A DNA stretch of 64,000 bases from a phage, in the NCBI GenBank assembly GCA_022901335.1, contig GCA_022901335.1_3641.1; one strand, given 5' to 3'. Positions within the stretch are counted from its first letter, which is position 1. Every line of letters starts with the position of its first letter. The position numbers and the translations under genes were made by a program. Below the pieces are notes generated by a model, which worked only from the letters and a program-made list of their open reading frames with translations, searched no databases and was not told the DNA's origin. Below, one piece after another: positions 4,595-54,124 of the stretch.

Positions 4595-7500
4595 ATGGCT
4601 GATATTAAAGTTGTCAGAATCGAATCTCTTCCTGCCACTACCGCAGTGACAGAGGATGATTACCTGGTTGTTCAACAACCAGACCTGACCCGTCGTGTAA
4701 AAATTGGCGATGTTGTCCATGTGGATGGGACTGTTTCTCATGTAATCTCCTTTAAGGAAGGTGGTAAGTTAAACGGCCCAATGGATTTTGCCTACTTCGA
4801 AGAGGAAGACCTCTACCTGCGTTGGAAAGGCGAATTTCCCCACACTGTTCCTGCACTATCTTCACCGTACTCCGATGGTGGGATTACTGACGCTGCATGG
4901 ATGGTATATACAGATCCGTCCTTAAGGGAGGAGCTGGAATCTACCATTGGAGCATCTATGATCATGACAGCCGAAGGGCAGTCTGTCCAGGATGTAATGG
5001 ATGTTACTGTTCAAACAGCTAACGATGCTAAAGCACTTGCACAGCGTGTGGATTTTGGTACAGTGCACACTGTAGGTGATGTTATTCACCTTGATAACTT
5101 TGTGGGTCCTGCAGTTATTGAAGAGGGAAGAACCACCAACTACCCTTCTGTAGCAGCTGGTGAAAAATTTCTGAACGGTGTGGTATCTCGTCGTGATACT
5201 ACAACTGTTGATGGTATTTTCCGTGGCGCTACCTCCGGATCCATGTATACCATTGCAGTAACCAATGGTGTAGCAACAACAAAAAGAATAGCACTTCGTG
5301 ATGAATTTAAACGCCTAGAGGCAAACAGCCCAACAAGAACAGTTATCCGTGCTGGAGATGATTTAAACACGGCAGGGTACTTGCAGCTTGATGCAACAGG
5401 CCGCTGGGGTATGTGGAACCAACAAACAGCCTCGTGGCAACCTCTTGCTATAGAGCAAGGCGGTACAGGAGCCAGGGATGCCGCAGGTGCACGTATTAAC
5501 TTAGGGGCTTTCTATAAGCAACGTGCAGCCCTTGAGCCAAATTTCAATATCAATAACTTGACTGGTAATCAGGATGGTGTATACTACCAGCCGATGACTG
5601 CTTATGCAACCGAGGCAAATGGTTACCCTGCAGGTTCTGGTGCTGGTCACTTGATTGTTTGGCAGAACAATGCTAACGGCGGTACAGGTTGTCGTCAGGA
5701 ATACTATCCGTTCTCTAACGTAGATGTTTGGTATTTGAGAACCTATCAGGCCAACACAAACCAGTGGACTGCATGGCAGCCTATGGTCAGACCTCGTAAC
5801 GATGATACCTTTAGATCGCACATCGGTCTCGGGTCCAGAAATGCCCCTACTTTTGGGCACCTTTATCTGTCTCAAAGCACTGCTGAGGTTAAGTCGCCAT
5901 CAGGTATTCTCCATGGGGATAAATACGGCGCTGACGGTGTCCTTGAGCATGGATATCGTATCTACTCTGAAGTAAGAAATGATAATAAAGCTTGGTTAAC
6001 AATCCACCTGCATAAAGGTGCAAAAGGATCTGAAACTCACAGATATTTAGGTTTCTGCGAAGACGGAGTATTAGACTGCCCTAAATACATGCAGGTTGGG
6101 GATCTCACTGGTCAGCTGACAAACTGGGGACTTGGAGAGTGGATCCGTAGTTCAGGGGCAGAAAGAGGCTTCTGGGGGTCCAAGAAAGCCGCCAAGATGG
6201 TTGTCTGGGATGGTGGGATGGACGAATCCGGTAACGGCACTCTGGAATGGGGTGTTTATAACAACCGGAAGGCCAAGTGGGAACCTTTACCTCAAGCCGC
6301 AGGTGGCACTGGAGCTACAACTTTAGCAGATGCTCAGAATCTGTTCAAAGTTCCTATAGCAGCAGGTGTAAAAGACTTCTTAACACTGCCAAGAACCGCA
6401 GGGATGGAAGATGGGAAATACTACCCAATTATCGTTAGAACAGATCCGTACTATGCCCCAGCAACTGGCACTGATATTACCATAGTTACCAGATCGTCAT
6501 CCGGCGGTGACCCTATGAACTGTGCTACCTTACAGTGTCACTATAGAACTGGTGGGTGGACAGACAGAGGAGACTCTTTCTACGGGGTAGTAAATTTCTA
6601 CCAGAATGAAAAAGCACTTCTTGGGATGGTTGCTCCAACAAGGGGTAAACAAGAGTATGTTGCTTTCTATGTAGAGGCTCGTGCTTTCCCTGTCAGCATA
6701 TACGCAAGTAGAAATGTTGTCGAAGTGTTTACCAGAGAGCAAGATTACCAGGTCGGGGCTGTAACAGACAATCAGGATGGGGTTAAGTTCGTTGCACCTC
6801 TTCAATCAGCAGACTTGAATCTAGCTGTTCTTGGAGATAACAACACCAATACCAGACCTATTGTTGACTTCAAAGGTACTTCAGGGTTCTACACTGGCGG
6901 CGGCACACAGTGGCACTATATAGGCACTGCTGAACGCTATGCTGTGATGAGCAAAATGAATATGCCAAAAGTCGAGCTATGGGCAGACGGTATTGACTAT
7001 TTGTGCTACGGCAGTCCTAGAAAGGCGTTATTCTCTAATGCAGGATTCCAGTGTGCATCCGATGGGACAGAGGATCTTACTAACGGTACGTTTACCTCTA
7101 AATGCGGTAATGGTGCTGGTCTCAAAGGTCAGGCAGAGTTTAGATCTACTCCGGAAGCGGGTCAAGTTATTGTTCGCGATGTTGTAGGCACAGCTCATAG
7201 ATTCTACAACTTCAACAAAGATGGCACTTTCTCAGCTCCTGGTGGTTTTGTATGCCACACAGGTGCAGACTGGAACAACCAGTTCGGGAATAACAACCCT
7301 TCTAAAATAATGGCTGGTAACGTCAACGGACCTGAAGGTTCCATGGTTGTAGCAGGGTTGTCGGTTGGTTTTTCTGGAAACTACGCTTTCCAGATGGCAG
7401 GTCGTTTAGACCAGCTGTATACTCGTTCCATAGAGCAGGGAAACCACAGAGCGTGGAACAAAGTTATTCAGCACCGTGGTCAAGGGTTGGGAACTAATGA

Positions 7501-45180: not shown

Positions 45181-45518
45181 GTTTGTGGAGAAATATAGTT
45201 AACTACGTGTGTGGCAATCCAACTCCTGAAGAGAAGGATGTTGTGATTCACGATTTTACTAAAAGATCTCGTGAAAAAGACCTGCTGCTAACAAAGGTGG
45301 TTGATAAAGATCCTGCAGTCGGGGACTGGGCAGGTTTTGCGTTTACATCGGACAAATACACCTTTAACAAAGGTGACTATCTTGTTGTAGATTTTAACGA
45401 AGACATTGAGGGTGCTGAACCTTACTATCAGACCCTTATTATTGCAGGGTGCGTTGATCTCTCTGCAGGAATGCACAGTTTGATTCTTTTTGAGCTTGAC
45501 TCTGAAGACCTTCAGTAG
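45177..45518 (+). CDS. hypothetical protein
   Basis: 113 aa, overlap-coupled. Confidence 0.5.
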   Translation: MSLWRNIVNYVCGNPTPEEKDVVIHDFTKRSREKDLLLTKVVDKDPAVGDWAGFAFTSDKYTFNKGDYLVVDFNEDIEGAEPYYQTLIIAGCVDLSAGMHSLILFELDSEDLQ

Positions 45519-45578: not shown

Positions 45579-45881
45579 ATGAAACGTTATAAACCATACA
45601 CTTTTGAAATCGATTTCGAACTTGACGATATGTTTACTGTGGAAGCTCAAGCAGTTGTCCAGTTGCCAGACTCGGAGTGCCGTGACTCTGATGTTGACTA
45701 TTACGGATTTAGACAAATTACCGATGTGCGTGTTTACCACAACGGTGAAGAGGTGGACTTCCACCAACTACCAAACGATATGCGCCACTTAATTTACAAA
45801 CGTGCAGCCCGTGAACTAGAGTCCTATCTGGATGCAGCGACGACAGCAGCTGCATTTGCTGAAGAAGTTGGAGGTTTCTGA
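45579..45881 (+). CDS. hypothetical protein
   Basis: 100-aa ORF. Confidence 0.5.
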   Translation: MKRYKPYTFEIDFELDDMFTVEAQAVVQLPDSECRDSDVDYYGFRQITDVRVYHNGEEVDFHQLPNDMRHLIYKRAARELESYLDAATTAAAFAEEVGGF

Positions 45882-46288: not shown

Positions 46289-46771
46289 ATGTCAGATTTT
46301 ATGTGGAAAGTTGGTTATTCCTCCCCTGAAATGTGTAAAGCCTGTTTTGTGAAAATAGGTCGCGAAGATATCGACAAAGTGATCCTTAAGTTTCGTGATG
46401 TGGCTGTGATCGGCAACCGAGTGCTTAAGCACTTAAAGAATCTGAAGCTCACCAAAAAGAAATTCTTCGGACTTTTCGAAGAGAAAGTTGATGCTTGGAC
46501 CCATTGCATTCAGGAAGCTAAATCTCACTACAGTGCCATCATTACCCCAGAACGGGTAGCCAAGATGGAAGGATTCATCAACAGCACAGAGTTTGAGTGC
46601 CTGAAAGCTGCACTTGATAGTTATCCGAAATGCCTCAAGCACTTGGACAAGTATGTAGAAAAGGATGGGGAAATGTATCTAACCCTGGACGCATATTATG
46701 AGATGCAAGAAATTTTAAATTTAGATTTGACATTGGTATCCACCGAGTATACAATAGGTATCCGGGTTTAA
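46289..46771 (+). CDS. hypothetical protein
   Basis: 160 aa, RBS AAGGAGAAGG. Confidence 0.5.
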   Translation: MSDFMWKVGYSSPEMCKACFVKIGREDIDKVILKFRDVAVIGNRVLKHLKNLKLTKKKFFGLFEEKVDAWTHCIQEAKSHYSAIITPERVAKMEGFINSTEFECLKAALDSYPKCLKHLDKYVEKDGEMYLTLDAYYEMQEILNLDLTLVSTEYTIGIRV

Positions 46772-46777
46772 CACTAG

Positions 46778-46806
46778 GCCCTGCCCGAAAGGGTGGGGCT
46801 TTTTGC
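46778..46806 (+). terminator. rho-independent terminator (GCCCTGCCC-GAAA-GGGTGGGGC + T-run), copy 1
   Basis: 9-bp stem with 2 G-U pairs, GAAA loop, TTTTT; identical hairpin at 58545. Confidence 0.55.
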
Positions 46807-46822
46807 ATTAGGAGACAGCAAA

Positions 46823-47587
46823 TTGAAATTTATCTACAAAGAACACTACCACAAAGGTGTTGTGTGGAGTCTGTTTGACGGGTCTGGTGGTGCAGTCATT
46901 GACTGGGCAAAAGCTGGGTACCTGTGCCTGTGCTTTAATGCAGAAGGTGCTGATCACGGCAGTTATGCAGAGGTGATAACCGATCATCCCAACATTCACT
47001 ATGTGGATTATTGGATTGACCCATGGTTCCCTCAGGAAACTTTTTGCATGTACCCAGCTCCAGACTTTATTCTTGCATTTCCTCCGTGCACGCATTTAGC
47101 GGTATCAGGTGCTGCACATTTTAAGAAAAAGCTGGCTAAGGATCCTTTGATCCAAATTAATGCTGTAAAGGATGCTCGGGTTGCGGAAGAACTGGGAGAG
47201 ATTTACGATTGCCCGTGGCATGTAGAGAATCCTGTTGGTGTTATGTCCACACTGTGGCGCAAACCTGATTACCGTTTTCATCCTTCTGACTATGGCGGGT
47301 ATTTACCGGAGGATGATGTAAACCCCTGGTTTCCTGAATTTATAGCTCCACGTGATGCCTATCCAAAAATAACTTGCGGCTGGATAGGTAATGGATTTAT
47401 AATCCCGGCCACAAAACCTGTCCCGCAAATAGTTGACGCGGTTAGCGGGTATTCCATGCAACACGCCAAGCTGGGCGGAAAGAGTGCAAGAACGAAGATG
47501 ATCCGAAGCCTCACACCACGTGGCTGGGCAAAAGCCGTATTCTTAGCAAACGAGCCTGCAGTAAGGAGAAGGGCAAATGGTTGTTGA
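46823..47587 (+). CDS. short C5-cytosine-methyltransferase-like protein
   Basis: TTG start after RBS AGGAGA; motif I-like LFDGSGG, PC motif FPPC, ENV-like ENPVG; lacks a recognisable target-recognition domain. Confidence 0.4.
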   Translation: MKFIYKEHYHKGVVWSLFDGSGGAVIDWAKAGYLCLCFNAEGADHGSYAEVITDHPNIHYVDYWIDPWFPQETFCMYPAPDFILAFPPCTHLAVSGAAHFKKKLAKDPLIQINAVKDARVAEELGEIYDCPWHVENPVGVMSTLWRKPDYRFHPSDYGGYLPEDDVNPWFPEFIAPRDAYPKITCGWIGNGFIIPATKPVPQIVDAVSGYSMQHAKLGGKSARTKMIRSLTPRGWAKAVFLANEPAVRRRANGC

Positions 47588-48251
47588 CTGGAGCAAGTAT
47601 TTCACCTATAGCGACGGCAAACTGTTCTGGGCGTATACCGCAAAAGCCGGAAGGGGTAGGATCATACATTACGCAGGTGAGGAGGCCACAGGCACAGATA
47701 AAGATGGCTATAGAGTAATAAATGTGTCAGGTGTTGGAAGTGTTCGTAGGCACAGAATAATTTGGGAGATGCATTACGGAGAGATACCTGAAGGTCTTGT
47801 TGTTCGGCACAAGAACGACATAGCAGGGGACGACAGGATAGAGAACCTAATCCTGGGGACACAAGGTGATAATGCACGAGACATGATCTACAGTGACAAG
47901 CTAAACATTAACAATACCTCAGGGTATCGTGGCGTGCGCTATCATAGAGGTATAAAAAGATGGACTGCATCTGCTGGAGACATATACTTAGGGTGTTTTA
48001 AGACAAAAGAGGATGCAATTGCATGCAGAAAGTTATGGGAGAAAGGAAAATTCGTCCCGCAAGAATTAGATGTTAGAAACACTAGCGGTGTAACAGGGGT
48101 GTTCTATGTGCCGAGCTCTGGAAGGTGGAGAGTCCGAGTGCAAAGCGGCAAAAAGAGAAAGAGCTATGGCACTTACAACACTTTAGAAGAAGCAAAAGCT
48201 GTAAGGGATAAGGTGATGAAAGAGATTGAGGAGTTTAAAGATGGGGAATAA
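47577..48251 (+). CDS. HNH homing endonuclease with two AP2 DNA-binding domains
   Basis: HNH_3 motif HRIIWEMHYGEIPEGLVVRHKNDIAGDDRIENLILGTQGDN; AP2-like SGYRGVRYH...W and SGVTGVFY...GRWRVRV...YGTYNTLEEA. Confidence 0.7.
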   Translation: MVVDWSKYFTYSDGKLFWAYTAKAGRGRIIHYAGEEATGTDKDGYRVINVSGVGSVRRHRIIWEMHYGEIPEGLVVRHKNDIAGDDRIENLILGTQGDNARDMIYSDKLNINNTSGYRGVRYHRGIKRWTASAGDIYLGCFKTKEDAIACRKLWEKGKFVPQELDVRNTSGVTGVFYVPSSGRWRVRVQSGKKRKSYGTYNTLEEAKAVRDKVMKEIEEFKDGE

Positions 48252-50319
48252 GTTTATACCCTCTGCATATAGCCGCTATGGAGAACCTAACCCAGTTGCA
48301 ACAAGATACAAAAGCGGAGGTAGTATGAAACGAGACTATCGCGATGAAAAAGAGGTTGAAACTGTAGAGACCGTTTTAGAAAATACTAAAATTGTCCCTG
48401 TCCCACAACAAAATATCGGTCTGATGGCTGCACAATATTTTGGTGTGCGATCAGCATTGTCCCAAGAGGACGGTGTGACAGTAACTGCAACATATTTCCC
48501 ATATTACGACCGCTACGGAAATCTATCTGGCTTTAAAAAGCGTGATTGGTCTAAGCCAAAAGAGCAGAAAGGGCACTGGTCTGTAGTGGGCATCGTAAAG
48601 GCCAACTCCCAGATGTTTGGTCAAAAGCTGTGTGCATCTTCCAACAACCGTAAGCAGATTAACGTTTGTGAGGGAGAAGGTGATGTTATTGCAGCATGGC
48701 AGGCTGCATATCAGATACAAGTAAAAGGGATTCTCACCAACGCTAAAGCCCCGGCAAAGGTGAAGCAGTGGGCTAAAGAGGTCCAGGACGGGATCGACGC
48801 AGTTATCAACGGTGGTGATCTGGCAGGAAAACCCTGCCTACCTTTTGTTGGAATTAACTGTGGATGTGCAAACGCAGTAGATACTTTTGCAAACAATGAG
48901 AAGTTTATCCGTAGCTATGGAACAGTTGTGCTGGCAATGGATAACGATGCAGCTAACGAGGTAGAGAAGCAAAAACACGTCATTAAAGGTGTTGAGGCTA
49001 CGCACAATATCGCAGCATTTTTGATGGCTGATAACGTTTACCACGTAGAGTACCCTGGTGAAGTAAACGATCCTGACGGTGTAAAAGATATCCGTGACAT
49101 GCTAAAGGCTAAAAAGCTGGAAGATATTGTCAACATGTTCCGTCACCCAGTCAAATATGTGCCCGATGCTGTATCTGATTTAGAAGACTTCTCCATTGAA
49201 TCTCTTCGTAAGAAGACTTCTAATGGCGTAGATATCAGCGCGGAGTTCCCTAAATTGCAGAAGATGCTGAAAGGACTCCACAAAGGCACCTTGATGATGC
49301 TGACAGGCCCATCTGGCGGTGGTAAAACAACTGTAGCCAAGAAACTAGAACACTGCATTGCAAAATACTTGATGGATCCGACATGCCCTAAAGCCGATGA
49401 TTATGAAGAGGATGATCGCCTGTGTCTGATTCACCTTGAAGAGGACCCTGAGGAAGCAATTAACTCTCTATACGCCAACCAGTTGGGGTTTGATGTTAAA
49501 GAGTTTGTTGAAGACCCTAGTCAGTTCCTGACTGATCAGGAGCATGCTGAGATTCACCAATCTTGGGCCAAGGCTGGAAAAATCAAAGTGTTCAAGCATT
49601 TTGGGTCTATTCCTGTAGATGAGTTGATCACTAAGCTTAAACAAATGGTGTGTCTGTATCACTGCCGTTACATTGTGCTGGATCACCTGTCCATGGTAAT
49701 TTCAGGGCTTAATGTTAAGGATGAGCGCAAAGAACTTGACATGGCTATGACGCAACTAGCCGCGTTCTGCAAGCAGTTTAATGTATTTATCTTGGTGATC
49801 GCTCACCTGAAACGCATAGAGATTGTGCCTCCAAAGGACAAGGATGGGAATCCGTTACCTTTCTGGTATCCTGTACGAAAAGAGAACCTTCGGGGTAGTG
49901 CCGGATTGGAGCAACTTAGCTGGGTAGTTGTTGGGGTGGAGGCAGAAGAGATGGTGGATCGTTCCCGTGGACGTGTCCGACTGGTAGGTCTTAAAAACCG
50001 CCCAGCAAAAACGTTAGGCATTGCGGATACCTTAGTTATGGATCCCCACACAGGTAAGTTCCATGATGCCAGCAACTGGTACTGGGACAAAGAAATGCAG
50101 ATGTTCACAGACGGCGAAGGTGGGGAGGTTGTTTGGAGACCTCAAGCTATGTTTGAGGATCAAGGGCACGCAGTTGTAGAAACACCTGTAGGTAGGGTTG
50201 TGGCTGATAAGGTTGTAACTCCTACTGTTAACCCTGTTGACACACAAGAAGATCTCCCGTATGATGATCCGTCCTCTGACCATGTTCCCGGTTTTGAGGA
50301 TGATGAAACACCTTTTTAA
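48241..50319 (+). CDS. primase-helicase (Toprim primase + DnaB/T7 gp4-like helicase)
   Basis: ATG 48241 after RBS GAGG; Toprim CEGEGD and LAMDNDAANE; Walker A GPSGGGKTT; Walker B-like IVLDHL. Confidence 0.75.
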   Translation: MGNKFIPSAYSRYGEPNPVATRYKSGGSMKRDYRDEKEVETVETVLENTKIVPVPQQNIGLMAAQYFGVRSALSQEDGVTVTATYFPYYDRYGNLSGFKKRDWSKPKEQKGHWSVVGIVKANSQMFGQKLCASSNNRKQINVCEGEGDVIAAWQAAYQIQVKGILTNAKAPAKVKQWAKEVQDGIDAVINGGDLAGKPCLPFVGINCGCANAVDTFANNEKFIRSYGTVVLAMDNDAANEVEKQKHVIKGVEATHNIAAFLMADNVYHVEYPGEVNDPDGVKDIRDMLKAKKLEDIVNMFRHPVKYVPDAVSDLEDFSIESLRKKTSNGVDISAEFPKLQKMLKGLHKGTLMMLTGPSGGGKTTVAKKLEHCIAKYLMDPTCPKADDYEEDDRLCLIHLEEDPEEAINSLYANQLGFDVKEFVEDPSQFLTDQEHAEIHQSWAKAGKIKVFKHFGSIPVDELITKLKQMVCLYHCRYIVLDHLSMVISGLNVKDERKELDMAMTQLAAFCKQFNVFILVIAHLKRIEIVPPKDKDGNPLPFWYPVRKENLRGSAGLEQLSWVVVGVEAEEMVDRSRGRVRLVGLKNRPAKTLGIADTLVMDPHTGKFHDASNWYWDKEMQMFTDGEGGEVVWRPQAMFEDQGHAVVETPVGRVVADKVVTPTVNPVDTQEDLPYDDPSSDHVPGFEDDETPF

Positions 50320-50377
50320 TGTTTAACCAAGAGTGGGAGGGGTAGTACAACCGCCTCCCCTTTAAGGAGAACTGTAT

Positions 50378-53300
50378 ATGAGCATGTGGTCTTTCGATTT
50401 TGAGTCATCCGGTTTGCTGGAAGACCCAGATCTTTATTATCACTGCGGCCTGTTTAAAGAGTTGAATAAGAACCGTTTTATGCTGTTCCTTCCTCTGAAT
50501 GACCGCACACACTACTCCGAGGAGGATATAGAGAAGGCTAAGAACTTTATTCTGGCAAAGAAAACTCTTTATAAGGATTTTGAAGTTCGCATAGCAGATT
50601 TTTCAGAGTTGGAAGGTTGGCTTACAGGCAATTCTGACTGGTCACCCACAGCTTTGAACTGCCACAACTGCTACAGCTACGACTTTATGCTGATGGAGAG
50701 ATTGTCCGGTATTCATTTTGATATGTTCCGTGATCCTAAGTGCATGGGGACTATCAACGACCACCAAGTTAATCTGTTTGATACGTTGGCGATGAGCCGA
50801 ATCTTGTGGCCTGATCGCCCTTTACCAAAAGGTTGTCCGGACTCTGTATTCAACCCGGTTACTAAGAAAATGCAGCCTGTTGGTCCTCACGGCCTTATGG
50901 CATGGGGCTACGCCCTTGGTAACCAGAAAGTTCAAATTGATGACTGGCGCGATCTTCCGTTGTGGAAGTATGTGGATCGTGTATTCGAGGACGTTATCAT
51001 CCAGGAGCTGCTCTGGAAAGAGCTGGTAGCGGAATCAAAAGGTGTATTCTACGGCAAATCTGACATGCAGAACTTTATGTACGATCCAGCCAAAGAGAAG
51101 CCGAAAGGGTTCAAGAAGATCACCTGGAAGAACGCATTACGTCGAGGAATGCTGCAGCACTTCCTGATGGAGCTGCAGGCCCGTCAGGGTGTATACTTCG
51201 ACATAGATGGGGCTATTGCTTTACGTGACCGTTGCGATGCGTGGATGAAAGAAATCGCTGATCGTGTTGAACCACAACTGCCTTTAAAAGAGCTGTCAAT
51301 GTCTCAGCGGCCCAAGTTCCCTGAAAAGCCGTTTAACCAAGACGGGACAATCTCTAATAATGGTTGGAAATGGTTAAAAGATAAGCTTGGCTATCCTGTA
51401 GACATGAGTGCTTTAGAGTTCAAAGCCCCGCCTAAGCGAGCATTTACCTCTACAGGAGATGTCAGTAAGATGGGGATAAAATGGTGTGAAGAGATGGGCT
51501 GCAAAGACCCCGATAAGATGGCTGATTTCTTGAGAGGCTATATTAAGGGCACCTCCACACCACAACCTTTACCTAAAGAGCTAATGGATCAGGCAATAAG
51601 TGATCTACAGCAGAAGCGAATGCCGGACTGCAAGATACCTATGAAAATCAGCAACCAGGACGACATTAAGCGATACCTGATCAGTGCTGGTTGGCTTCCA
51701 ACAATGTGGAGAACTAAGGATGTAACTAAAGACAGCAAGAAGAAAGCTCTACCTGATGCAGATGTTGATGCACGAGTATATGCATATATGGACGAGCTTT
51801 TAGAGTCAGAGTATTGTGACCTGATTATCAACTTCTGGAACAAAACTGATGCTAAGTTCCAGACAACCGTGCACAAGTTCCGAAGCTTTCCTAACTCCGA
51901 AAGGATTAAAAAGGAAGTATTCGGGAAAATACGTAGAAAAGCTAGGGCACTTATTACTTCTCCGCAACTGAAAGATACGTTTGGACACCTATGCCCTAAT
52001 CTTGAAAAATTGAACGGAGAGATGGCTAAAGATATCGTCTTGTGGTTATCATTGCGAAACCGCAGATCGGTCCTTGATCCAATCAAGGAGGATAAGGTTG
52101 ATACTGGTCTTCTTAATCACCCACGTTTGAAGATTGACCATAAGCTTCCTGCTAAAAGTTCTGGATTAACAAACACTTCCCGACAGAAACACAGTATTTG
52201 TGCAAACATGCCTAAACCATCTCCTAAAGTGGTTATGGGTAAAGAGATGCGTAGTCTGTGGGGTGTTCCTCCAGGATACTTTGAGATCGGTATTGACGGG
52301 TCCAACTTAGAGCAGCTTATCGGGGCTTGGGGTGCCTTTGAGTTCGACAACGGCCTGTATTACGATGTTGTAAGTAATGGCGATGCACACTGTTATTCAG
52401 GAGATACACAAATTCTCACGGAGAAAGGGTGGGTGAGGTTTGAAGATCTTGATCCGGGAACACAAGTGTTCCAGTACGATCACAGCACCTCGTCAATGAA
52501 CCTTGTTACTCCATTAAATTACGTTAAGCGTAGTTATTATGGGGATATGTATCATTTCCACAACAGTAGTGTGGATTTTATGGTTACAGATCAACACCGG
52601 ATGCTGACTGTGGATCACAGAAGCAATAAATTGTTTGAAGATTTGGCAAAAGACCTGAAAGCAGGTAAAGGGTCTAATTCAGGAAGAAGGTTTATCCATG
52701 CGGCAGAGTTTTATGGGAATACAGCCTTATCTCCTGCCCAGGTTAATTTGCTTATTGCTATTCACGATGATGGGCACTTGCATACAAATAAGGACGGCAG
52801 CATCGTGTGCAGGATTCAGGTCGGAAAGGGAAGAAAAGTTGCAACGCTTTTAGATACTTTTTCTGCTCTAAGCCTTAGTTATGTAGAGCAGAGCGGGAAA
52901 ACCACAAAAGGAGGCTTACTGGCGAGAAGGTTCCAATTCCACGTTCCGTCCTGGGTATTTGAGTTTTTGGACAGCAATAAGGATTTCACCTACAACCTGA
53001 TGAACCTTGATAAAGAATCTAAAAACCTGTTTATAGCTTCTTTATCTAACTGGGACGGGTGGGTATCTTCCGAAGGTGGAAAGGTTGCTTACTACTCTCA
53101 GGCCGAGTGCAGGAAGAAATCTGTAGAGGTGGTGTCTGCGCTGGCTACTCAGTGTGGTTTACGGAATAATACGGTGGCGATTCACAAAAAAGGTCGTGCC
53201 GTGCAGCACAGAATCACAATTGGTAGCAAACAAAGAGCAGGGTTGCTGACACTATCTAAAGAGTCTGTCGAGGTGAGCGGTTCTTTGGTTTATTGCGTTA

Positions 53301-54124
53301 CCGTCCCTTCTGGAGCAATCATTGTGAGAAGGAATGGTAAAGTGGCAGTGTGCGGTAACTGTAATAACGCCAAAGCTTACTCTTCTGTAGCAGGCAAGGA
53401 GATTTCCCGTAACGACGGTAAACCTATCACGTATGGGGTTATGTACGGGGCACAAAAAGATAAAGTTGCAGATATGCTGGACATCTCTCCAGAGTTGGGA
53501 CAAAGGGTAATCGATGCGCTTTGGGATGCCAACCCTGGTCTTAAGGGCCGTAAAGAGGATCTGGAGAAATTCTGGGAAGCAACGGGTAAGAAGTTTATCT
53601 ACTCTTTTGATGGTCATGCCATCTGGACCCGATCTAAACACTCTTTACTTAATGCATACCAACAGAATGGTGGTGCATCGCTGTGTGACTTGGTTGGGAT
53701 ACTTATGCACCACCAAATGGTGAAGCGTGGGTGGTACGATGAAGGTGTTCGTCGTATTATCTATTACCATGACGAATATCAGCTTCAAGTACCTGACACA
53801 CCGAAGTATAAGACTGTGTACACCTTCGACACAATTGAAGAATTGGAAGCATTTAAGGCAGAGCAGGAGGCCAAACTTCATGTGTTCGACGGTCATAAGT
53901 ACAAAAAGGCACGCAAGGATGAAAACGGAAACGAAGTGGTTGACAGAGACGGAAACACGGTGTACGATCCTATCCTGAACGATGACGGAAAGCTTGAACT
54001 TATCTGGAGTCCTGTGGGCGAAATGGTGGTACATTGCTTCTGGCAAGCTTCTAAAATGATGGGAGTCCCGTTCCAGATCACAGGTGAATACTTGTGTGGT
54101 CGTAATTGGGGTGATTGTCACTAA
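50378..54124 (+). CDS. family A (T7-like) DNA polymerase with intein insertion
   Basis: Exo I FDFESSGL; motif A IGIDGSNLEQL; motif B RNDGKPITYGVMYG; motif C YYHDEYQLQV; about 323 aa inserted between A and B. Confidence 0.85.
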   Translation: MSMWSFDFESSGLLEDPDLYYHCGLFKELNKNRFMLFLPLNDRTHYSEEDIEKAKNFILAKKTLYKDFEVRIADFSELEGWLTGNSDWSPTALNCHNCYSYDFMLMERLSGIHFDMFRDPKCMGTINDHQVNLFDTLAMSRILWPDRPLPKGCPDSVFNPVTKKMQPVGPHGLMAWGYALGNQKVQIDDWRDLPLWKYVDRVFEDVIIQELLWKELVAESKGVFYGKSDMQNFMYDPAKEKPKGFKKITWKNALRRGMLQHFLMELQARQGVYFDIDGAIALRDRCDAWMKEIADRVEPQLPLKELSMSQRPKFPEKPFNQDGTISNNGWKWLKDKLGYPVDMSALEFKAPPKRAFTSTGDVSKMGIKWCEEMGCKDPDKMADFLRGYIKGTSTPQPLPKELMDQAISDLQQKRMPDCKIPMKISNQDDIKRYLISAGWLPTMWRTKDVTKDSKKKALPDADVDARVYAYMDELLESEYCDLIINFWNKTDAKFQTTVHKFRSFPNSERIKKEVFGKIRRKARALITSPQLKDTFGHLCPNLEKLNGEMAKDIVLWLSLRNRRSVLDPIKEDKVDTGLLNHPRLKIDHKLPAKSSGLTNTSRQKHSICANMPKPSPKVVMGKEMRSLWGVPPGYFEIGIDGSNLEQLIGAWGAFEFDNGLYYDVVSNGDAHCYSGDTQILTEKGWVRFEDLDPGTQVFQYDHSTSSMNLVTPLNYVKRSYYGDMYHFHNSSVDFMVTDQHRMLTVDHRSNKLFEDLAKDLKAGKGSNSGRRFIHAAEFYGNTALSPAQVNLLIAIHDDGHLHTNKDGSIVCRIQVGKGRKVATLLDTFSALSLSYVEQSGKTTKGGLLARRFQFHVPSWVFEFLDSNKDFTYNLMNLDKESKNLFIASLSNWDGWVSSEGGKVAYYSQAECRKKSVEVVSALATQCGLRNNTVAIHKKGRAVQHRITIGSKQRAGLLTLSKESVEVSGSLVYCVTVPSGAIIVRRNGKVAVCGNCNNAKAYSSVAGKEISRNDGKPITYGVMYGAQKDKVADMLDISPELGQRVIDALWDANPGLKGRKEDLEKFWEATGKKFIYSFDGHAIWTRSKHSLLNAYQQNGGASLCDLVGILMHHQMVKRGWYDEGVRRIIYYHDEYQLQVPDTPKYKTVYTFDTIEELEAFKAEQEAKLHVFDGHKYKKARKDENGNEVVDRDGNTVYDPILNDDGKLELIWSPVGEMVVHCFWQASKMMGVPFQITGEYLCGRNWGDCH
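52391..53359 (+). mobile_element. intein with LAGLIDADG homing-endonuclease domain inside the DNA polymerase gene
   Basis: block A CYSGDTQILTEKGWV after extein GDAH; block B TDQH; LAGLIDADG-like LLIAIHDDGHL and FIASLSNWDGW; ends VAVCGN before +1 Cys. Confidence 0.65.

Follow-up and report, generated by a model that had tools for sequence, protein, structure and literature searches.

Free-standing homing endonuclease genes (HEGs) of the T4 type, including SegG, SegE and the HNH Mob genes, show co-conversion of flanking sequence and target polymorphism in the genomes that carry them. HNH-AP2 proteins, as summarised in PMC10448857 with reference to Magnani 2004, are a recognised family of homing endonucleases in phages, cyanobacteria and protists, and nuclease genes have been found to mark recombination boundaries in phages (PMC10448857). 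I-HmuI and I-BasI, from the Bacillus phages SPO1 and Bastille, are monomeric enzymes in which a single HNH site follows a beta-rich DNA-contacting region; I-HmuI itself is encoded within an intron, acts as a single-strand nickase, and carries a C-terminal DNA-binding module of a different type (PMC3017599). The Vequintavirinae are rich in free-standing HNH homing genes (PMC7344957), including one that interrupts the rV5 terminase gene (PMC4591320), and the authors of the BASEL collection noted that large coliphages are infested with HEGs and show gene conversion around them (PMC8594841).

The stretch of DNA examined in the present study (the window; 64,000 nucleotides of contig GCA_022901335.1_3641.1, NCBI GenBank assembly GCA_022901335.1) belongs to an rV5-like E. 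coli myophage of the genus Vequintavirus and carries a candidate HEG between two conserved genes:

46793..47587, + strand, Dcm-like C5 DNA methyltransferase gene (PHROG 757 'DNA methyltransferase', E 5e-87)
47577..48251, + strand, candidate HEG (224 aa, ATG start, from the ORF list and the sequence)
48241..50319, + strand, DNA primase/helicase gene (PHROG 239, E 3.9e-158; Pfam DnaB_C and AAA_25)

The second of these ORFs, called in the initial annotation, is real and has the limits given there. Its protein matched PHROG 99 ('HNH endonuclease') with an E-value of 2.8e-53, and pairwise dN/dS ranged from 0.05 to 0.15 among five intact copies, which shows purifying selection on the protein; profile E-values and dN/dS together rule out a chance ORF. 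The orthologue of the upstream gene in phage HeinrichReichert is annotated as 'Dcm-like C5 cytosine methyltransferase', with the methylase start placed 30 nt further downstream in the annotation of some relatives. For the primase/helicase, the start was taken as ATG 48241 following the annotated starts of relatives (a mechanical ORF listing gives TTG 48226), and the next gene along encodes a family A DNA polymerase. The candidate HEG is an ORF of its own, outside any intron or intein, with a G+C content of 44.7%, equal to that of the genome.

Like the T4-type HEGs, the gene is free-standing between conserved DNA-metabolism genes and patchy among relatives, whereas the Seg proteins are of the GIY-YIG type and none has AP2 domains. 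With the HNH-AP2 family and the 'IPA-HNH' HEGs of the Vibrio phage ICP1 (Barth et al. 2023, PMC10448857) it shares an N-terminal HNH domain, a C-terminal AP2 region, a phage genome and a position at boundaries of genetic exchange; the ICP1 genes are, however, too divergent for Pfam HNH_3, which the present protein matches strongly, and it has, next to one clear AP2 repeat, a second AP2-like one. The arrangement of a single HNH site after a beta-rich region is that of I-HmuI and I-BasI, and the general-base His, the structural Asn and the Asn metal ligand of I-HmuI are conserved (PMC2816704). Unlike I-HmuI, the gene is free-standing, encodes an AP2 repeat and a weaker AP2-like one, and has Arg in place of the Asp metal ligand. 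Paralogues of the same architecture occur patchily elsewhere in vequintaviruses, for example Ec2_00211 of JES2013, which lies between the primase and polymerase genes, with 32–38% identity, other insertion sites and the canonical Asp-His pair retained. A tblastn search of the window for further copies returned none, and the JES2013-type paralogue was absent from it.

Orthologues of the gene are already present in public records as bas58_0074 (QXV79860.1, HeinrichReichert), bas49_0075 (QXV77977.1, EmilHeitz) and 203_0205 (ATW61556.1, Phage 203), annotated as 'putative homing endonuclease' (the term used for the BASEL phages Bas58 and Bas49), 'homing endonuclease' or 'HNH endonuclease'. An identical protein is held by NCBI (EJA7080185.1, 'HNH endonuclease [Escherichia coli]'), encoded on a 139,204-bp contig and placed in a 90%-identity cluster of 70 members. 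The orthologues and EJA7080185.1 represent the same gene at the same site, with 93–98% protein identity. Compared with the orthologues, the window copy is one codon longer (MVVDW versus MVDW), giving a methylase overlap of 11 nt rather than 8 nt, and its backbone differs, with an rV5-like 3' half of the primase gene and an insert-bearing polymerase. No biochemical characterisation of the orthologues was found in the literature searched.

The protein divides into the following regions:

47577..47744, + strand, N-terminal beta-rich region, residues 1-56 (AlphaFold2 strands 9-57, pLDDT 76-93)
47745..47879, + strand, HNH_3 beta-beta-alpha-metal motif, residues 57-101 (Pfam PF13392)
47913..48041, + strand, AP2-like repeat 1, residues about 113-155 (below Pfam threshold)
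48084..48227, + strand, AP2 repeat 2, residues 170-217 (Pfam AP2 above gathering score)

The HNH_3 match (PF13392, residues 57-101) has an E-value of 2.3e-17 and scores 62.8 bits against a cut-off of 24.8. An AlphaFold2 model of the whole protein (mean pLDDT 76) predicts a beta-beta-alpha fold here, with strands at 74-78 and 91-95 and a helix at 96-106 (block pLDDT about 86-93 over residues 61-90, falling to 71 over 91-100). The top Foldseek match of the model is I-HmuI (1u3e), over 109 alignment columns in the N-terminal part; a sequence search of the PDB with the same protein gave insignificant matches alone (E about 0.5). By analogy with I-HmuI, the modelled N-terminal beta-rich region may contact DNA. 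In an alignment of 17 homologous sequences H78, N90 and N99 are invariant, and they correspond to the general base, the Asn positioning H78 and a metal ligand, respectively, following the roles assigned in ColE9 and I-HmuI (PMC2816704).

The residue preceding the general-base His is a metal-binding His in ColE9 and Asp in I-HmuI, Hpy99I and KpnI (PMC2816704). Across the 17 sequences this position is D in 11, N in three and R in two, the Arg (R77) being confined to the clade of the present gene, in which the usual Asp/His metal ligand is missing. R77 may alter or abolish catalysis, yet it is a caveat and no disproof of activity, because a single Asn ligand suffices in some beta-beta-alpha-metal nucleases (PMC2816704). 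The substitution nevertheless raises the reading that the protein is a former homing endonuclease which no longer cuts, R77 having removed a metal ligand, and which is kept as a sequence-specific DNA binder (for example as a regulator, or to act as a roadblock on the DNA of the phage or of a competitor), with its patchiness reflecting ordinary recombination and loss. The restriction of Arg at the first metal-ligand position to this clade, strong purifying selection over the whole protein including both AP2 repeats, and precedents for co-opted HEG DNA-binding domains (PMC10448857) are in keeping with this. The retention of all three of H78, N90 and N99 argues against it, as do the sufficiency of a single Asn ligand, the junction-hugging divergence and conversion-like patch described below, which are traces expected of an active or recently active nuclease, and the lack of the gene in about 96% of relatives, which indicates no function that the phage needs. 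We consider a non-cutting binder of this kind quite improbable.

The initial annotation had described an HNH_3-type motif plus two AP2 repeats; the HNH_3 domain and one AP2 repeat stand above threshold, and the other repeat is sub-threshold but aligns to the one that passes. Repeat 2 matched Pfam AP2 (PF00847) over residues 170-217 with an E-value of 1.6e-10 and 41.6 bits against a cut-off of 33.3, with predicted strands at 175-200 followed by a helix at 203-222 (AlphaFold2) and Foldseek matches to the AP2 domains 7wq5 and 7et4. Scanned alone, repeat 1 reached 18.2 bits (E 0.003), under the same cut-off, and it aligns to repeat 2 with 33% identity (pairwise E 2e-5). Its predicted strands (120-141) and helix (144-155) form a three-strand-plus-helix unit like that of repeat 2, and the model as a whole matches WRINKLED1, a two-AP2 protein, in Foldseek.

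Alignment of the junction with HEG-negative relatives delimits the insertion and the translation signals at its two ends:

47577..48240, + strand, segment missing from HEG-negative relatives (664-bp alignment gap)
47563..47568, + strand, Shine-Dalgarno AAGGAG of the candidate HEG, 8 nt upstream of its ATG (sequence and junction alignment)
48228..48233, + strand, Shine-Dalgarno GAGGAG of the primase gene, within the 3' end of the candidate HEG and 7 nt before ATG 48241

A clean gap of 664 bp was found in MiataMamis, rV5, JES2013, Pr121LW, 241Ecol014PP, JEP1 and Gotham, the seven aligned HEG-negative genomes besides V18. The segment is 661 bp in other HEG-positive phages, which are without the extra GTT codon at 47580-47582, and its exact limits can be shifted by as much as 4 nt, ATGG standing at both ends. 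The overlaps of the gene with its upstream neighbour and with the primase gene, both noted in the initial annotation, are borne out at 11 nt each, with the methylase stop at 47587 and the primase ATG at 48241. That annotation had also placed a selfish insertion in an intergenic junction; the insertion between the two genes is precise, but the site is not intergenic, since in HEG-negative relatives the methylase gene ends 11 nt into the primase gene, leaving no intergenic space. The element recreates this 11-nt overlap at each of its ends. The AAGGAG motif now serving the candidate HEG stands before the primase ATG in HEG-negative phages, so that the element takes over the primase gene's old Shine-Dalgarno and ATGG, and its own 3' end brings a new Shine-Dalgarno and 11-nt overlap, by which expression of the essential primase is preserved.

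The sole strong promoter in our scan lies at 46727-46755 (11/12 matches), upstream of the methylase gene, so that the candidate HEG probably shares a transcript with its neighbours. Neither promoters nor terminators gave an element-specific signal, with counts in the range of shuffled sequence, and predicted RNA folds at both start sites showed no clear sequestration of the ribosome-binding sites.

Relatives were defined as the 124 phage records matched by a 6-kb query around the gene (90–97% identity), 113 of which span at least 80% of the 6-kb neighbourhood. Comparison of the junction across this set showed that, far from occupying the same site in all relatives, the gene is present in 5/124 records (HeinrichReichert, EmilHeitz, Phage 203, Phage 206 and ECO121 2-1-1, the last a 1.4-kb fragment) and absent from 119. 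A single species, Vequintavirus murica, holds HEG-positive HeinrichReichert as well as HEG-negative Pr121LW and Gotham. Extra copies recovered from public assemblies were, every one of them, at the methylase/primase junction, and no relatives came up among the IMG/VR viral contigs scanned. The HEG-positive genomes vary in nearby indels, an N6-methylase insert being present or absent and the polymerase forms differing. The polymerase intein named in the initial annotation corresponds to a real in-frame insert of 323 aa, with Cys as its first residue, Asn as its last and Cys next after it, which occurs in 7/116 relatives with a distribution independent of the candidate HEG.

An HNH domain is also found in packaging-associated proteins that assist the terminase, as in HK97-like phages, and is the only point in favour of such a role here. 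The gene's place is between methylase and primase in the replication module, and not beside the terminase; it is missing from most close relatives; and its AP2 repeats and HNH_3 family are unlike the terminase-adjacent HNH type as outlined in PMC3592412. A packaging role is rejected on position and distribution, and is effectively refuted.

Sequence divergence linked to presence of the gene is concentrated in two tracts:

47569..47576, + strand, left HEG-linked polymorphic tract (junction alignment, haplotype map)
48246..48325, + strand, right HEG-linked diverged tract (22 fixed differences in 80 nt)

Between four HEG-positive and four HEG-negative genomes, 27 of the 41 fixed differences are packed into 87 nt next to the element (47569-47575 and 48246-48325), against an expectation of 1.2 (P 2.5e-31). 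In the left tract all HEG-positive sequences differ from the seven HEG-negative genomes that keep it, the tract being mostly deleted in V18. The haplotype hugging the gene diverges from HEG-negative genomes by about 26%; the window shows 25–26 mismatches to them per 100 nt at 48241-48340 and 3–8 in the next two 100-nt windows. Within the first 29 primase codons, some of the right-tract changes are synonymous and others replace an amino acid. This diverged tract abuts the insertion point, whereas in T4-type HEGs it lies at a distance.

A haplotype map of 16 HEG-positive and eight HEG-negative sequences showed junction-proximal 'P' alleles in 16/16 of the former, whereas seven of the eight latter carry 'm' alleles on the left and, to the right, over 48246-48261 or further. 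Further downstream the P haplotype is also found in HEG-negative genomes, the switch from m to P falling at 48261-48276 in JEP1, at 48294/48295 in 241Ecol014PP, and between 48325 and 48393 in Gotham and JES2013. Strict linkage to the gene therefore covers only the junction and about 20–45 nt rightward (48246-48261 at least). We take this stretch of the methylase/primase junction of HEG-negative genomes, roughly AAGGAGCAGAATTAATGGGAAGTAAATTTATGGCATC, as the most likely recognition region, with confidence in this candidate target evenly balanced. A second diverged patch at 48550-48591 was rejected as a target, the 'HEG-positive' form also being present in HEG-negative Gotham, 241Ecol014PP, JEP1 and V18.

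The primase haplotypes form two families that recombine freely in HEG-negative phages as well, and the outgroups Mydovirus Seu621 and Seunavirus SPLA5a share residues with both N-terminal haplotypes. The methylase gene is 97–98% identical in all genomes, with few and reticulate variable sites, leaving the left flank too invariant for a conversion tract to be seen. Such pervasive mosaicism, even among HEG-negative genomes, fits a passive accessory gene, acquired once in an ancestor and afterwards shuffled and lost by general homologous recombination with no nuclease drive, and so do the patchiness of other nearby indels (the N6 methylase and the polymerase insert) and the fair age of the gene copies, between which dS reaches up to 0.3. 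This reading leaves unexplained why 27 of the 41 fixed differences abut the element, why all copies share a single exact site, and why a nuclease plus DNA-binding architecture typical of homing genes is maintained at a dN/dS of about 0.1; we regard it as very doubtful.

The window has a mosaic of its own to the right of the gene:

49062..49095, + strand, haplotype switch at the right end of a conversion-like patch (mismatch profile, haplotype map)

Rightward of the gene the window follows the HEG-positive primase haplotype up to 49062, whereas all diagnostic sites from 49095 onward have the rV5-type allele. Between 49141 and about 50240 the window shows 0–2 mismatches per 100 nt to HEG-negative rV5, MiataMamis and Pr121LW, compared with 6–26 differences per 100 nt to the other HEG-positive genomes. 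Upstream of about 46500 it is nearest to HEG-negative MiataMamis and Pr121LW. A gene-bearing patch within a backbone resembling HEG-negative phages would be the expected trace of homing with about 0.8 kb of rightward co-conversion. Ordinary recombination could instead yield the switch at 49062-49095, because the primase gene is mosaic in many genomes, and the left boundary of the patch is not placeable because the methylase gene varies too little.

The initial annotation's reading of a free-standing homing endonuclease is supported by the separate ORF, the domain content, the sporadic occurrence (5/124), the 664-bp gap, the HEG-linked flanks and the conversion-like patch. From this genomic evidence we consider it highly probable that the gene is an HNH-AP2 free-standing HEG, mobile now or recently; cleavage activity, the target site and spread by homing, as opposed to ordinary recombination, are what we infer from sequence comparison. 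In a mixed infection, the AP2 repeat, the AP2-like repeat and the N-terminal beta region would recognise the junction of a HEG-negative co-infecting phage, and the single HNH active site would nick or cut near it, on one or both strands. Nicking may be as likely as double-strand cutting, because the enzyme closest to it in structure, I-HmuI, works by nicking (PMC3017599). The break would then be repaired by recombination with the HEG-positive genome as template, copying the gene plus some flanking sequence (co-conversion). HEG-positive genomes would be protected by having their site split by the element and the adjoining bases heavily substituted. The element itself sits seamlessly in a translationally coupled gene overlap.

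The dS of up to 0.3 between copies indicates that the element is old in the lineage and does not reflect a recent sweep. Forms that may be further stages in the life cycle of a homing gene were also seen. One sample set yielded 16 contigs with a truncated 203-aa variant, and V18 is without the gene while carrying the HEG-positive haplotype right up to the junction. The gap in V18 is 673 bp and takes out the primase ATG as well as the gene; the junction reads AAGGAGA followed directly by GGGGAATAAG. The element seems to have been lost here by imprecise deletion; a nearby frameshift in the record, at 48589, means that sequence errors are possible. A related reading, which we judge unlikely, is that R77 has altered the function of the protein, which would nick one specific strand or bind DNA without cutting it, and that the element persists through 'expression addiction' rather than, or besides, homing. 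The element would be hard to lose save by exact replacement because its 3' end supplies the primase ribosome-binding site and overlap. If this is true, V18, with its primase ATG lost, would illustrate the cost of imprecise loss.

The finding is known in kind, and the gene was already annotated in relatives; the present study adds the anatomy of the junction, the HEG-linked haplotype, the conversion-like patch and the R77 caveat. Its practical value is small, and the current understanding of homing endonucleases is unchanged. It narrows the candidate target of a so far uncharacterised HNH-AP2 enzyme to about 40 bp at the methylase/primase junction, and the BASEL phages are suitable material for testing that enzyme. 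For the vequintaviruses, which are used in phage therapy and biocontrol, the HEG explains a local break in synteny and identity between genomes, and its region is one to leave out of phylogenies.

Phage V18 does not carry the homing endonuclease gene (HEG) between its methylase and primase genes, yet it retains the diverged sequence that adjoins the gene in HEG-bearing genomes (the HEG-linked flank; 48246-48325 of the window, on the primase side).

V18 (KY683736), 1989-2010: methylase/primase junction, equivalent to window 47570-48242

The 673-bp gap at this junction also removes the primase ATG, and the loss of a single nucleotide, at the site matching window position 48589, breaks the V18 primase frame. 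V18 is either a real HEG-loss derivative or the product of assembly errors. A shortened form of the endonuclease (P0027; 203 aa) ends ~20 residues early, within the second AP2 repeat. This variant, which may be a degenerating copy, was seen on 16 contigs, all from one sample series, and is represented by Logan contigs L019-L023, from runs SRR29581955-SRR29582184.

Three further features of the window lie in or beside the methylase, primase and polymerase genes.

46727-46801: promoter and terminator-like hairpin (hairpin 46776-46801), near the longest methylase start
48550-48591: second very diverged patch in the primase gene, codons about 104-117
52391-53359: 323-aa in-frame insert within the gene for the family A DNA polymerase (50378..54124)

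The promoter is a near-consensus sigma-70 element (TTGACA, 17-nt spacer, TACAAT), directly followed by the strong hairpin, and the two lie just upstream of, or overlap, the longest methylase start. Both have annotated positional counterparts in relatives, namely promoter P231 of rV5 and a terminator of Gotham. The primase patch, with ~15 diagnostic differences in its 42 nt including amino-acid changes, distinguishes two primase haplotype families, and its linkage to HEG presence is not strict. The polymerase insert begins with Cys (CYSGDTQ) and ends in ...VAVCGN followed by Cys, termini patterned as those of an intein would be, and its N-terminus has a weak match to Hint_2 (E 4.9e-5). Of the 116 related records, only seven contain it (JEP1, Mangalyan, 241Ecol014PP, EPFV3-03/2025, YP-6, NHEP1 and VB-EcoM-WM), none of which carries the HNH-AP2 gene, indicating that the two elements are distributed independently.

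Sixteen records titled 'Campylobacter phage' (e.g. C15, A12a and C2; 128-141 kb) share ~94% identity with this E. coli vequintavirus across the region. This similarity suggests that the records are mislabelled or contaminant genomes.

Additional genes were identified at three loci in relatives.

rV5, 1081-2406: N6-adenine methyltransferase gene, 1.3 kb
JES2013, 6561-7295: second, different HNH-AP2 gene, between primase and polymerase
Salmonella phage SPLA5a (Seunavirus), 692-1333: 213-aa gene at the methylase/primase junction, Laminin_G_3 / concanavalin-like domain (E 1.5e-12)

The N6-adenine methyltransferase gene is a further presence/absence polymorphism within the same module as the HEG, being carried by rV5, JES2013, EmilHeitz and Phage 203 and missing from HeinrichReichert, MiataMamis, Pr121LW and the window, where the equivalent locus is a short gap separating the ORF that ends at 45518 from the one that starts at 45579. 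The second HNH-AP2 gene, present in JES2013, FFH2, WalterGehring and others, is in JES2013 32% identical to that of the window and has the canonical Asp-His pair; it is absent from the window, where the equivalent empty site is 50320-50377. In the more distant relative SPLA5a, the Laminin_G_3 / concanavalin-like gene takes the place of the HEG, which indicates that, in the subfamily as a whole, genes have repeatedly inserted at the methylase/primase junction.
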